From: Gemmatimonadaceae bacterium
GTDB lineage: Bacteria; Gemmatimonadota; Gemmatimonadetes; Gemmatimonadales; Gemmatimonadaceae
Assembly: GCA_040901985.1 (NCBI GenBank)
Contig: JBBDYC010000009.1
Coordinates: 156,364-220,363 of the forward strand
Length of the DNA: 64,000 nt
Direction: 5' to 3'
The first letter of the stretch is position 1; each line of letters begins with the position of its first letter. Positions 33,001 to 36,000 of this stretch are shown in pieces. A program made the position numbers.

Positions 33001-36000
33001 GAGCCCGAACGACTCGCGATAGTTCACCGTGATCCAATGGCCGTAGACCTTCGCCACGCCATAGGGCGAGCGCGGATAGAACGGCGTGGACTCCTTCTGC
33101 GGCGTCTCCTGCACCTTGCCGAACATCTCGGACGACGACGCCTGGTAGAAGCGCGCCTTGGGAACCGTCCGCCGCACCGCCTCGAGGAGCCGCGTGACGC
33201 CGAGCGCGGTGAACTCGCCGGTGAGCACCGGCTGCGTCCACGACGTGGCGACGAACGACTGGGCGGCGAGGTTGTAGAGCTCGTCCGGCTTCACGTCGGC
33301 AATCGCGTCCATCAGCGACGTCTGGTCGAGCAGGTCGGCCGAGAGGAGCTCGATGCGGTCCACCAAGTGTGCGATCCGCTCGTAGGGCGTTGTCGAAGAG
33401 CGCCGTACGATCCCAACGACGCGATACCCTTTCTCGAGCAGGAGCTCGGCGAGGTAGGATCCGTCTTGGCCGGTGATGCCGGTGATGAGGGCGGTTTTCA
33501 TCGTGGGACTGGCTTCGAGGTTGAGAAACAGGTGTCAGGTGTCAGGTGTCAGGTGTCAGGTGTCAGGTGTCAGGTGTCAGGTGTCAGGTATCAGGTATCA
33601 GGAACAACCCGCAGAGCTTCGCGTAGTGCCTGACACCAGACACCTGACACCTGACACCTGACACCTGACACCTGACACCTGACACCAGAAACCTGAAGTT
33701 AGAACGGGGAGAGCGTTGGCACGCTCCCCCCGTCAGGACCGATCAGACCGCCACGATCGTCAGATCGCAGCGACAGCCCCGCGCGGCGCGCGCTTGATCT
33801 TGCCCGCGTTGAGGCAGCGCGTGCAGACCTTGATCTTCACGATCTTGTCGCCTTCGACGACGCGGGCCACCTGGAGGTTGGGCTTCCAGGTGCGGCGCGT
33901 GGCGTTGTTGGCGTGCGAGCGGTTGTTCCCAAAGGCGACGCCCTTCTCGCAGACGTAGCAGCGATTGCGCTGGATGGCCATCGGTCAGCCCTCCAGGAGT
34001 TCGATGCGCGCCATGTCGGCGCCGTCACCCTTGCGGTGACCGGTCTTGAGGATCCGGGTGTACCCGCCCTGGCGCTTGGCGAACTTCGGGCCGAGTTCCT
34101 GGAAGAGCTTGTCGGCGGCATCGCGCTTCTGCACGTGCCGGCCGGCGAGGCGGCGGGAATGCAGGGTCCCCGTGCGCGCCTTGGTGATCAGGCGCTCGAC
34201 GAAGGGCCGCAGCTCCTTGGCCTTGGCTTCGGTGGTCTCGATTGCCCCCTGCTCGATGAGCGAGGTGGCGAGATTCCGCAGCAGCGCGAGCCGCTGTTCT
34301 GAGGTGCGGCGGAGACTCCGCCCAGCCTTGCGATGACGCATCGGTCCTACTCCTCTTCTTCGTCGTCGGGCGCGTTCGCGGCGGCGCGGCTCGGCGGCGT
34401 GCCCCAATCGGCCACGCGCACGCCATCCGGCGACTCCTCGAACCGCATCCCGAAATTGAGTCCTTCCTTCTCGAGGAGGTCGGCGATCTCCTGGAGGGAC
34501 TTCTTGCCGAAATTCTTGACCTGCAGGATCTGCGTCTCGGTCTGCCGGACGAGGTCGCCGAGCGAGCGGATGCTCGAGTTCTTGAGCGAGTTGACCGAGC
34601 GGACGGACAGGTGGAGATCGTCAATCGGCGTGCGGAGCAGCTCGGCGAGGCGGGCCGCATCCGAGCTCCCCTCGGCGCCGGGCACCGCGACCGCCGCGGC
34701 GGTGTGCGACCCGAAGCCGGCGAAGTACTGGAAGTGCGTCTGCGCGAGCGCCGCCGCGTAGCTGACCGCCTGCTCGGGCGAGATGGTGCCGTTGGTCTCG
34801 ACCGTCAGCGTGAGGCGGTCGTAGTCGGTGCGCTGGCCGACGCGCGTCTCGGCGACCGCGAAGTTGGCGCGCTTGACCGGCGAGTAGATCGCGTCAATGC
34901 GGACGAGGTCCACCGGGAGCGAGCGGTCGAATGGATGCTGGTCCGCCTCGACGTAGCCGCGCCCCTTGTTGACGTAGAGCTCGACCGAGAGGTCGCGCTC
35001 GTCCTGGAGCGTGAAGAGGTGGTGCGCCGGATTGACGACGGTCACGCCGCCGGCGCCTTCCAGCTGGCCGGCCGTGACGGCGCCCGCCTTGGTGACCTTC
35101 AGCCGGAGGATCGCATCCTCGACATCCTCGTCGAGCGCCAGCGTCAGCGTCTTCAGGTTGGCGATGATCTGGTGGACGTCCTCGACGACGCCCTGGATGG
35201 TCTGGTGTTCGTGCAGCACGCCGTCAATGCGGAAGCCCCACACCGCCGCGCCGCGGAGCGACGAGAGCAGCATGCGGCGCATCGAGTTGCCGAGCGTGTG
35301 GCCGTAGCCCCGCTCGAGCGGCTGGAGGCGGAATTCCGCGAGGTTGGTGAGGTCCTCGCGCTTCGTCATCTCGACAAGCTGCGGGCGGACCAGGCCGCGG
35401 AGATCAATCGTGTGCGACATCGGATGGGATCCTTGGAAAGTGAAAGTCACGATGGCGAAACGCGCCACCGACGCCGTGCCCCGCCCCTGACGCGCGGCAC
35501 GTTCGTTCGGTTGTCAGGGAACCGGGTCAACTGCAGGATTCAGGATTCAGGTTTCAGGGCCGCGCCCGTTCAGGCGCGGCCCTGATCCCTGACACCTGAC
35601 ACCTGATACCTGCCTTACTTGCTGTACAACTCCACGACCAACTGTTCCTGCGCCGCGATCGGGATCATCGCCCGCTGCGGCTTCTCGAGCATCCGGCCGG
35701 AGAACGTGTCCTTGTCCACCGCGAGCCAGGTCGGCGTCGCGCCGCGGGCGGCGATCTCCAGCGCGTCCTTCACGATCACCAGCTCGCGCGACTGCTGCCG
35801 CATCCGGATCTCCTGCCCCGGCTGCACCAGGTAGCTCGGGATGTCCACCGACTTCCCGTTCACCTCGACGTGCCGGTGGCGGATCAGCTGGCGCGCCGCC
35901 TTGCGGCTGGCGGCGAAGCCCATCCGGTAGACCATGTTGTCCAGCCGGCTCTCGAGCGCGGCGAGGAGGTTGTGGCCGGTGATGCCCGGGAGCGTGGACA

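Follow-up and report, generated by a model that had tools for sequence, protein, structure and literature searches.

What is the long palindrome that fills the spacer between the ribosomal protein L28 gene and a GDP-mannose 4,6-dehydratase gene in a member of the Gemmatimonadaceae, and why does it take the form of facing seven-base repeats? We consider this locus within a stretch of 64,000 nucleotides (hereafter the window), alongside similar arrays elsewhere in the same genome and in its relatives. The locus comprises the following features, in window coordinates.

32530 to 33501, minus strand: GDP-mannose 4,6-dehydratase gene (PF16363, 1.4e-130), downstream neighbour of the palindrome
33530 to 33597: purine arm, read on the plus strand as 8 x AGGTGTC and 2 x AGGTATC (sequence, Tandem Repeats Finder)
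33598 to 33633: centre or loop of the palindrome, decayed units AGGAACA ... GCCTGAC (sequence, folds)
33634 to 33694: pyrimidine arm, read on the plus strand as GACACCA, 7 x GACACCT, GACACCA and GAAACCT (sequence, Tandem Repeats Finder)
33705 to 33732, minus strand: separate stem-loop rich in G+C, immediately behind the L28 gene and followed by a short U-rich tail (sequence, fold)
33760 to 33981, minus strand: rpmB, ribosomal protein L28 (PF00830, 6.6e-20), upstream neighbour on the sense strand

Read directly, positions 33530-33597 hold about 10 AGGTGTC units and positions 33634-33694 about 9 GACACCT units, the latter followed by GAAGTTAG, a tail of the G-N-N-G-T type. Tandem Repeats Finder reports both arms at period 7, one at 33529-33602 (10.6 copies, 98% matches, CAGGTGT) and the other at 33629-33696 (9.7 copies, 91% matches, CCTGACA). 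For a 271-nt stretch here, the minimum free energy (MFE) is -186.7 kcal/mol when the minus (sense) strand is folded and -182.4 kcal/mol for the plus strand, while its shuffles lie at about -97 kcal/mol (sd 5.3; z = -16.9 and -15.8, respectively). The palindrome that a first-pass annotation had placed at 33530..33680 is thus confirmed by both its facing arms and its fold. On the sense strand, the segment 33530..33597 becomes the 3' pyrimidine arm and ends 28 nt before the start codon of the dehydratase gene, which has no Shine-Dalgarno core in front. At the other end, congeners share the stem-loop at 33705..33732, probably the terminator of L28, and the heptamer palindrome begins just behind it. 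Rfam covariance models yield only sub-threshold microRNA-precursor matches at the palindrome, which score 42 bits where the gathering score is 104.

The window holds further arrays, among them a second palindrome.

9234 to 9252: short purine array of 3 units, CGGTGGG AGGTGAA AGGTG (array list)
10026 to 10071: pyrimidine array without a partner, CACCTCC x 6.6, against the right-hand edge of the spacer (Tandem Repeats Finder, sequence)
14113 to 14234: decayed pair, with purine AAAGGGG-type units at 14113-14151 and pyrimidine CCCTTTCACCT / CCTCTCC units at 14190-14234
35534 to 35612: second palindrome, adjoining the rpsD stop codon and followed 113 nt later by rpoA, with arms CAGGATT x 3.6 and CCTGACA x 3.6 flanking a G+C-rich stem-loop (Tandem Repeats Finder, sequence)

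Genome-wide, CACCT and AGGTG are the pentamers that most often recur three times at period 7 (15 + 7 = 22 loci). Consecutive AGGTG copies are spaced at 7 nucleotides 44 times and at 14 nucleotides 29 times, against 1-17 times at other spacings from 5 to 15, and the corresponding counts for CACCT are 59 and 45 against 0-16. A census that presupposes no motif (non-genic Tandem Repeats Finder arrays with a score of at least 40) finds 44 arrays at period 7 compared with 0, 3, 5 and 10 at periods 5, 8, 10 and 11, which like 7 are not multiples of three. The exact AGGTG/CACCT core occurs in 34 of these 44 and a one-mismatch version in 9, against an exact core in 1.4% of random heptamers, so that the excess of such arrays claimed earlier emerges from the pentamer loci and from the motif-free count alike. 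The array list contains 62 arrays of at least 2 units across 54 spacers, with 3 of the 62 inside crude gene calls; among genic period-7 rows of Tandem Repeats Finder, the core appears in 3 of 117. Across unlinked arrays the core is conserved and 1-2 positions of the unit are free. A scan of genome contigs returned at least 122 AGGTG-core stretches among its listed matches; among the matches listed from other phyla, AGGTG arrays have unrelated pyrimidine-rich arrays behind them, another sign that arms need not match. Short-read assemblies break at such arrays, and 2 contigs of the present genome end in them. In the sequencing run that is the likely source of the window (share 0.93), no listed contig spans 33559-33656, an observation that carries no evidential weight.

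The arrays are strongly oriented with respect to genes. Considering arrays in spacers of up to 420 nt, with start distances that rest on our own, crude gene calls, the 5' edge of the purine strand is the edge nearer to a gene in 46 of 52 arrays (binomial p 1e-8), at a median distance of 8 nt. Forty-three of the 52 lie within 30 nt of a gene; starts account for 18 of these, stops for 21 and tRNA 3' ends for 4, in line with the polarity toward these three kinds of gene end that had been noted before. Since an inverted repeat is the same on both strands, gene polarity is not separate from a fixed handedness, and the pattern of AGGTG after stops and CACCT before starts follows from the purine arm coming first and lying close to a gene. 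The same rules apply in congener G016, whose arrays have a GACGG core: 22 of its 25 arrays are polar, and the purine arm comes first in 8 of 8 double-arm spacers. By gene arrangement, array-bearing spacers divide into 37 tandem, 9 convergent and 5 divergent, where 33.6, 6.0 and 11.5 are expected (p 0.06).

The end that faces the gene also has a sequence of its own. Outside the first AGGTG, C occupies position -1 in 42 of 61 ends and position -4 in 42 of 61, and A occupies position -5 in 38 of 61; this flank reads RAC-K-R-C, which recovers the G-Y-M-G-T tail described in the first-pass annotation. Moreover, the outer edge of the arrays is sharp and the inner edge decaying (24 vs 11 discordant arrays, p 0.04). 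The idea that RAC-K-R-C is a free-standing gene-end signal was rejected, array-free cases being rare (3 to 8 intergenic).

One possibility, which we consider unlikely, is that the hairpin is a selected intercistronic RNA stem-loop that would shield the upstream message from 3'-5' decay or attenuate read-through. An extension of this proposal, in which the base of the stem would bring a stop codon close to the start of the following gene and let ribosomes pass without a Shine-Dalgarno site, seems to us just as doubtful. Both draw on geometry, as stop codons lie 0-15 nt and start codons 3-28 nt from the stem base, and the shortage of arrays in divergent spacers (5 vs 11.5 expected, p 0.06) points the same way. 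REP elements are thought to act likewise, stabilising mRNA or terminating transcription (PMC3733652). Spacers with both arms are also enriched, 8 against 0.88 by chance, with the purine arm first in 8 of 8. Pairing between arrays is nevertheless the exception: in 43 of the 51 spacers that bear arrays, a partner array is missing, so the earlier estimate that about half are folded with one was too high, a relaxed detector finding both arms in only 8 of the 51. In MFE folds, at least 60% of the bases pair inward in 26 of 50 arrays, against 19.1 after the rest of the spacer is shuffled; in G016, double arms occupy 8 of 15 spacers. Arms can mismatch, some of them pairing through the pentamer alone with 2x2 internal loops.

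Selection on a sense RNA should leave a strand bias in G-U versus A-C mismatches, and among 32 tandem spacers this bias is absent (G-U pairs 121 vs 123), with the sense strand folding better in 16 and the antisense strand in 14. It also speaks against a selected intercistronic hairpin that arrays occur after tRNA genes and in divergent spacers too, and that a consensus scan finds no terminator-like tail; scanning 33300-35800, it calls neither palindrome a terminator, the best post-stem tail being GUUUCUC. A related idea, suggested by folds viewed by eye, was that the arms are expanded flanks of a central G+C-rich terminator. The counts do not support it: 7 of 50 arrays have a perfect G+C-rich stem of at least 7 in the 60 nt on their inner side, as do 126 of 1586 control windows, and the inner 50 nt have a median MFE of -14.0 against -15.25 in 532 control windows (p 0.76).

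Across orthologous spacers, the hairpin is retained as its heptamer changes. Between rpsD and rpoA, a hairpin of -43 to -62 kcal/mol is present in 6 of 6 genomes (the present one and the 5 congeners searched), with a heptamer that differs genome by genome. That the hairpin is kept with both arms changed together favours selection for it, and its retention in an essential operon hints at use, a point against a neutral repeat born of slippage. Furthermore, in G016 and G022 both rpsD-rpoA arms carry a locus-specific unit, GAGACKT, which is not the main unit of the genome; local co-evolution of the two arms follows, which selection for pairing would predict too and which counts against an origin by slippage. 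The spacer between L28 and the dehydratase gene is less constant. Inspected by eye in 18 congeners, it contains arrays of differing heptamers in 11 and none in 7, the latter counting against a selected hairpin. One congener has a GACGG-like arm opposite a CACCT-like arm, and some loci have intermediate units such as AGATGGG and AGACGGC. A single-gene tree of the dehydratase leaves 7 of 17 inner branches unresolved and is too poor to place the unit types as clades.

Four RNA runs cover 6-8% of the words of the window, through contigs that are 90-95% alike and derive from conserved genes of relatives, and are thus uninformative on array transcription in the organism itself. RNA-library contigs of more distant relatives do run continuously across the rpsD-rpoA site, where 9-10 bases replace the 90. 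About 1.5 units remain at this 'empty' site of a relative, which fits growth in place.

Among 41 relatives, AGGTG-type arrays are found in 18 genomes, GACGGA-type arrays in 8 and both in none. Within the genus, G000, G007, G009 and G021 are of the AGGTG type and G004, G016, G022 and G023 of the GACGGA type, while G006, G017-G020 and G024 show neither pattern. The AGGTG core is present in 6 of the 11 genera sampled in the order, across three of its families, a long persistence for a neutral repeat. GACGGAN arrays, together with the change of heptamer at orthologous spacers, show that the pentamer is not constant in relatives. AGGTGNN, GACGGAN and others are genome-specific 'dialects' of one architecture.

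A dialect that marks dozens of unlinked gene ends and displaces its predecessor at orthologous sites, with the architecture fixed throughout, could be the trace of a co-evolving trans-acting factor, although we give this only a low chance. Co-evolving trans-factors have precedents in RAYT with REPINs and in ComP with the dialects of DNA uptake sequences. A sequence-specific agent of this kind, which we regard as improbable overall, would write or select the arrays and co-evolve with the dialect of its genome. One form it might take is an oligomer with affinity for single-stranded RNA or DNA, a protein recognising a core of 5-6 bases at 7-base intervals much as TRAP reads spaced triplets; another is an enzyme by which units are seeded at the ends of genes and then copied. 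The conserved core with 1-2 free positions in unlinked arrays, the genome-wide and mutually exclusive dialects, the replacement of the heptamer at orthologous sites with the architecture retained, and the sharp outer end with its terminal RAC-K-R-C (array-free in 3 to 8 intergenic cases) all suit an agent; in particular, a 5-6 base core shared by dozens of unlinked arrays fits one better than it fits slippage. Set against this, no candidate gene was found, a Y1/RAYT transposase and a reverse transcriptase both being absent although marker genes put the completeness of the genome at 99.97%; exchange among dispersed arrays could homogenise them too, and dialects are fuzzy at some loci (AGATGGG, AGACGGC). 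Telomere-like addition by reverse TRANSCRIPTASE was also considered, the G-rich strands running 5'-3' toward the centre, and rejected because the RVT_1 profile has 0 matches in the genome.

REP elements, short (20-40 bp) imperfect palindromes with an unpaired tag at the 5' end, raise the question of a mobile origin. That the arrays are a REP/REPIN or MITE-type element transposing into spacers is, in our judgement, very improbable. They do resemble such elements in being intergenic palindromes that end in a defined motif and in having genome-specific sequence families, and some ends read CACCT-GTAG-T or GT-CGTC, the tail being GTAGT or GTCGT(C). Here, however, the tag stands at the 3' end of the hairpin on each strand, on the opposite side from the REP layout, and the arms are heptamer arrays of 14-70 bp. 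The tags given for REP elements are GTAG and CGTC (PMC3733652). Unit number, unit type and centre differ between copies, which are therefore not copies of one master and lack the near-identity that would mark a MITE. No target-site duplications are seen on inspection of the array flanks, and the roughly 1.5 units at the 'empty' rpsD-rpoA site suit growth in place. Finally, a search for RAYT (Y1 transposase, PF01797) gave 0 matches in the 99.97%-complete genome, the same search being positive in 6 of 14 control genomes.

The resemblance of AGGTG/CACCT to the Shine-Dalgarno pair offers another explanation, the least probable of those considered here: the arms would mimic the Shine-Dalgarno sequence (AGGUG) and the 16S tail (CACCU), titrating or parking 30S subunits or masking ribosome-binding sites. 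The 16S tail GGATCACCTCCTTA, as read in congener G016, contains a complement of AGGTG, CACCTCC arrays correspond to the tail sequence itself, and the AGGTG core recurs in 6 of 11 sampled genera of the order. Yet in congeners whose 16S tail is the same, this architecture is built from GACGGAN, GAGACGT and other units, and beside start codons the sense strand bears the anti-Shine-Dalgarno-like arm rather than the Shine-Dalgarno-like one. Five-unit arrays in viral contigs show no enrichment either, with 23 AGGTG-core stretches against 54, 118 and 70 for composition-matched controls. Given that G016, a GACGGA-type genome, has this canonical tail, the likeness is probably chance and not a property of the family; the caution already voiced on this point was well placed, in view of the exclusive cores, the G016 tail and the viral contigs. 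None of the 19 genes with an array in front has a GGAG/GAGG/AGGA core at -20..-4, compared with 684 of all 2312 genes. The reported lack of Shine-Dalgarno motifs before these genes accordingly holds as a count, though not as a special trait, because the array itself fills that stretch. Array-free orthologues of the dehydratase gene, examined by eye, likewise have no such core.

We therefore lean, with somewhat less than even confidence, toward the arrays being an intergenic satellite born of slippage and homogenised in each genome, whose hairpin is tolerated and acts at most like a REP element. Arrays would arise and change length in DNA by replication slippage in a 7-base register, within the few unconstrained bases beside gene ends. 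Often they would be paired with their purine-rich strands facing each other, a configuration that enables the spacer to fold as a hairpin. Exchange between loci or a shared constraint may keep the arrays of one genome alike, giving each genome its own dialect, AGGTGNN here and GACGGAN in some congeners. The hairpin would be a tolerated by-product; transcribed within an operon, it might act as a barrier to 3'-5' decay or as a weak attenuator, at most as REP elements do. This origin by slippage is suggested by the motif-free excess at period 7, the same polarity and arm order with another core in G016, the exclusive dialects among 41 relatives and the turnover of heptamers at orthologous spacers. 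Sharp outer and decaying inner edges, strand-neutral folding and arms that need not match point in the same direction, as does a published class of repeats that obeys the same rules (PMC4692102). Plain slippage leaves the unit length of 7, the inward purine strand and the shared core with its 1-2 variable positions unexplained, and double arms are 9 x commoner than chance would give (8 vs 0.88).

We regard the arrays as the local form of a known class, that of long simple-sequence repeats with 7-base units in bacterial intergenic DNA. Short tandemly repeated repetitive (STRR) heptanucleotides have reportedly been described in heterocystous cyanobacteria, and the present arrays would resemble them in consisting of heptamers repeated in tandem outside coding DNA and in having several units particular to lineages. 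To our knowledge, the original STRR description did not include the polar rule or palindromic pairing. Three such heptanucleotides in Calothrix PCC 7601 are cited in PMC4692102. Rehm et al. 2015 describe the G-rich heptamer repeats GGGAATC, characterised across the genome, in Xanthomonas and GGGGA(C/T)T in Nostoc, with 70-75 convergent inverted pairs of GGGAATC in Xanthomonas (PMC4692102). Whichever way the 5' neighbour is oriented, these G-rich heptamers lie closer to it; they seldom occur between divergent genes, and their length differs among relatives (PMC4692102).

The arrays of our genome show the features of this STRR/GGGAATC class, namely 7-base units in non-coding DNA, polarity, inverted pairs and a locus that is kept, and Gemmatimonadota is a new phylum for a class described in Xanthomonas and cyanobacteria. 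The correspondence with GGGAATC extends to the placement of the G-rich or purine strand by the 5' neighbour (on the coding strand after stops, the non-coding strand before starts), convergent inverted pairs able to form stem-loops, scarcity in divergent spacers, and a kept locus with varying copy number and no tie to mobile elements (PMC4692102). The same polarity and facing pairs are thus already in print for other heptamers (PMC4692102). Differences from that account are the AGGTG or GACGG core, the absence of a preference for four units, the other phylum, the exclusivity of cores among congeners and the terminal RAC-K-R-C. Most units here have no G-run, so G-quadruplex formation is not general.

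A further example of the class is the heptamer TAACTGA, found as direct repeats in marine Beggiatoaceae and also in cyanobacteria and Bacteroidetes (MacGregor 2015, PMC4679880). That paper describes arrays that, like ours, stop a few bases before start codons, over the ribosome-binding position, in spacers with few Shine-Dalgarno sites and in ribosomal protein operons (PMC4679880). Shine-Dalgarno use is low in both, at 25% in the organism studied there (PMC4679880) and 30% here by a similar crude count. Unlike our arrays, TAACTGA repeats have one inverted pair in 170 sets and form one fixed heptamer across phyla, where cores here are genome-specific (PMC4679880). REP/BIME/REPIN elements are likewise intergenic palindromes after genes, mostly in tandem or convergent spacers and in species-specific families (PMC3733652, PMC3116915); by comparison, the arms here are tandem heptamers of variable number and no RAYT gene was found. 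What sets the present genus apart from earlier systems is a natural experiment that they do not provide, with exclusive cores, the same architecture and the same loci. Close relatives with exclusive cores at the same loci make a comparative search for the responsible factor, or for its absence, feasible.

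The palindrome noted in the first-pass annotation, which lies between rpmB and a dehydratase gene, is a real, well-marked feature, composed of two inverted period-7 arrays. Its left arm reads eight AGGTGTC units followed by two AGGTATC units, and its right arm GACACCA, seven GACACCT, GACACCA and GAAACCT. For a 271-nt stretch, the predicted folding energy is -186.7 kcal/mol (minus strand) and -182.4 kcal/mol (plus strand), compared with about -97 for shuffled sequences (z -16.9 and -15.8, respectively). The genes rplQ, rpoA and rpsD lie upstream of this region.

Features around the main palindrome (window coordinates)
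33760-33981, minus strand: rpmB (L28), first in gene order
about 33705-33732: G+C-rich stem-loop belonging to rpmB, directly behind it and ahead of the palindrome
33629-33696: right array, inverted partner of the left; period 7, 9.7 copies of CCTGACA, 91% matches
33529-33602: left array; period 7, 10.6 copies of CAGGTGT, 98% matches
32530-33501, minus strand: GDP-mannose 4,6-dehydratase gene, start 28 nt beyond the palindrome
35534-35612: second, smaller palindrome of the array family, directly behind the rpsD stop codon

Neither palindrome (33529-33696 or 35534-35612) matched anything in Rfam or was called by a consensus terminator scan. At 31563-33501, two neighbouring genes 1 nt apart match the GDP-mannose dehydratase and NAD-dependent epimerase families (1.4e-130 and 3.3e-46); they probably represent gmd together with a fucose-synthase-like partner.

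A census by custom scripts across all 19 contigs (2.64 Mb) of the assembly used gene positions from a crude codon-usage caller (2315 genes, 90% coding) and ARAGORN, so distances to start codons are approximate. Among pentamers repeated three times with period 7, CACCT (15 loci) and AGGTG (7 loci) rank first, as initially reported, and their copy-to-copy spacings of 7 and 14 far exceed every other spacing. Moreover, a motif-free TRF census of non-genic arrays (score at least 40) returned 44 of period 7, compared with 0, 3, 5 and 10 for periods 5, 8, 10 and 11; the core is exact in 34 of these 44 and has one mismatch in 9, while 1.4% of random heptamers carry it exactly. Arrays with at least two units number 62 in 54 spacers. 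Spacers between divergent genes hold arrays somewhat less often than expected (5 against 11.5; overall p 0.06). Contigs C5 (1-44) and C6 (122324-122378) both terminate in perfect CACCTCA arrays of 6.3 and 7.9 units (100% matches), indicating that arrays break the assembly; the true length of these two may exceed that shown. Several runs of N also occur inside G-run/C-run hairpins adjoining arrays, near C12:56450 and C17:202135. Another hairpin, GGCGCGCC-(about 11 nt)-GGCGCGCC, recurs centrally in or beside several arrays (C19:94629-94731, C19:200339-200453, C9:1-146 and C9:145797-145879) and looks like a separate REP-like family.

The arrays are strongly polar. On the plus strand, AGGTG arrays occupy the left spacer edge and CACCT arrays the right, irrespective of the orientation of the neighbouring genes. 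In spacers of up to 420 nt, the outer edge is nearer the gene than the inner edge in 46 of 52 arrays (p 1e-8), including 33 of 38 with no second array in the spacer, at a median distance of 8 nt. Of the 43 arrays with their outer edge within 30 nt of a gene feature, 18 adjoin a start, 21 a stop and 4 a tRNA 3' end, which bears out the polarity claimed initially from counts of 19, 20 and 3. Because an inverted repeat reads identically on either strand, an AGGTG array behind a stop and a CACCT array ahead of a start are a single fact, and the rule is that the purine strand, read 5' to 3', always leads away from the gene edge and into the spacer. The G-Y-M-G-T tail noted earlier is likewise genuine, and equals a RAC-K-R-C flank outside the first AGGTG (of 61 ends, 42 have C at -1, 42 have C at -4 and 38 have A at -5), a motif seldom present without an array. 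An exact outer unit with a degenerate inner one was found 24 times and the reverse 11 times (p 0.04); the array boundary is thus sharp outside and decays inside. Arrays scored beside tRNA genes all lie at the 3' end (4/4, none at the 5' end), as does one behind tRNA-Cys on C17, left out of scoring because its spacer contains N. In the tRNA cluster at C3:153693-154188, the His-Trp, Glu-Glu and Glu-Asp spacers each hold an unpaired AGGTG array beginning 8-24 nt past the 3' end of the preceding tRNA.

Partner arrays are fewer than the first-pass annotation suggested. It had about half of the arrays folded with a partner, but true double-arm palindromes are a minority, occupying 8 of 51 array-bearing spacers: a relaxed detector placed a purine array in 30 spacers, a pyrimidine array in 29 and both in 8, a nine-fold excess over the 0.88 expected (p 8e-7), with the purine arm first in all eight. 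Inward pairing exceeds that of shuffled spacers only modestly, with at least 60% pairing in the MFE folds of 26 of 50 arrays, compared with 19.1 when the rest of the spacer was shuffled. The arms were also considered as expanded flanks of a central terminator, a candidate rejected on failed controls.

Five-unit AGGTG-core arrays form at least 122 stretches across many phyla; among 80 examined, a CACCT partner lies downstream in 6 and upstream in none. In several, the downstream array is instead a pyrimidine-rich heptamer array of unrelated sequence, which suggests that convergent handedness outweighs complementarity of the arms. For example, five loci from methanotrophs, a purple sulfur bacterium and cyanobacteria (L058, L075, L060, L072 and L078), with AGGTG-core arrays of up to 43 units, carry such an array (ATTCTCT, CTAGCCC or TTCTTAA, among others) within about 50 nt, in convergent handedness and with non-complementary arms.

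Genes behind arrays were initially described as mostly devoid of Shine-Dalgarno motifs. This absence stands (a core at -20..-4 in 0 of 19, compared with 30% of all genes), but carries no special meaning, as the array itself occupies -20..-4, the organism makes little use of such sites, and dehydratase orthologues without an array, judged by eye, also have no core. The likeness of AGGTG/CACCT to the Shine-Dalgarno pair is most probably chance, as had been suspected, since the congener G016 has a canonical 16S tail (GGATCACCTCCTTA) yet GACGGAN arrays, AGGTG is rarer in viral contigs than composition-matched cores (23 five-unit stretches versus 54, 118 and 70), and the sense strand beside start codons bears the anti-SD-like arm. 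Units reading GGACGGAC and GGATGGAC occur in the G016 spacer just past the 16S rRNA 3' end (L041); rRNA 3' ends may thus be a further location of arrays.

Relatives use different heptamers at the same places. By eye, the L28-dehydratase spacer holds period-7 arrays in 11 of 18 congeners and none in 7, with units AGGACGG, GACGGAT, GACGGAA, AGATGGG/AGACGGG, GGACGGC and CACCTCT; in gene sense, it is always the purine-rich arm that leads. The array-free spacer of G003, a GACGGA-type genome, reads GTCACCG TTCACCG CCGCAC ahead of the start codon (L003), which may be what is left of a CACCT-type array. Over its first 400 kb, the 3-contig G016 genome has GACGG/CCGTC as the common core in place of AGGTG/CACCT, with the same polarity (22 of 25 arrays, p 1.6e-4; median distance 6 nt) and double arms in 8 of 15 spacers, purine first in all. 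In a pattern count covering 41 relatives, three-unit arrays of AGGTGNN were present in 18 genomes (121 matches in G009, 54 in G007, 40 in G021 and 35 in G035, from another family; 50 in the present genome) and those of GACGGAN in 8, congeners only (G016 206, G022 171, G023 98, G004 64; G003, G005, G008 and G011 1 to 20 each); none has both. A single-gene tree resolves too poorly to tell whether these dialects form clades.

The rpsD-rpoA spacer of the alpha operon bears on whether the RNA hairpin itself is selected, which we consider unlikely. All five congeners searched, which were picked for their many arrays and to represent both dialects, have a hairpin of 84-100 nt with -43 to -62 kcal/mol directly behind the stop codon, as does the present genome (6/6 in total); its units are specific to each genome (AGGTRTC, GACGGAA, GAGACKT, AGGTGTG). 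This retention, along with the way both arms co-vary locally, keeps the idea in play. A G-U pair in one strand's transcript is an A-C mismatch in the other's, and this test for RNA selection gave no bias (16 versus 14 spacers; 121 versus 123 G-U pairs). In RNA-library contigs of more distant relatives, the rpsD-rpoA site is joined across, 9-10 bases replacing the 90. The rpsD-side palindrome is followed, before the rpoA start codon, by a leader of about 110 nt (35421-35525; ...CCCTGACAG.CTTACGAGCGTACCGCGCGTCAGGGGCGGGGTACGGCGTCGGTGGCGCG...CGCCATCGTGAC...AAGGAT) that is conserved in all six congeners compared. Rfam gave no match to it at E values up to 1, and its role may be that of a promoter or of a regulatory 5' leader for rpoA.

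We tentatively read the arrays as a DNA-level satellite, which would grow through slippage beside gene ends and be homogenised inside each genome, its hairpin being tolerated and at most REP-like. This reading does not explain why the unit measures 7 nt, why handedness is fixed or why a core with 1-2 free positions is shared. These features, together with mutually exclusive dialects and in-place heptamer replacement at orthologous sites, lead us to retain as the most interesting rival a sequence-specific trans-acting agent, improbable as it seems: neither known candidate, a RAYT transposase or a reverse transcriptase, was found in the present genome (99.97% complete by marker genes). The dialect alternation at genus level is the point worth pursuing.

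Comparable repeats are known elsewhere. According to Rehm et al. 2015 (PMC4692102), the GGGAATC repeats of Xanthomonas and GGGGA(C/T)T repeats of Nostoc are intergenic, under-represented between divergent genes, variable in length among relatives and mostly transcribed, with 70-75 convergent inverted pairs in Xanthomonas. MacGregor 2015 (PMC4679880) describes TAACTGA arrays that border start codons and whose spacers contain few Shine-Dalgarno sites, and both papers cite Mrazek 2007 for a general heptamer-repeat excess and the idea of polymerase slippage. REP elements bear GTAG or CGTC tags (PMC3733652). In the literature collection searched, no publication on heptamer repeats in Gemmatimonadota was found; the arrays belong to the known heptamer repeat class, and the phylum and the cores are new.
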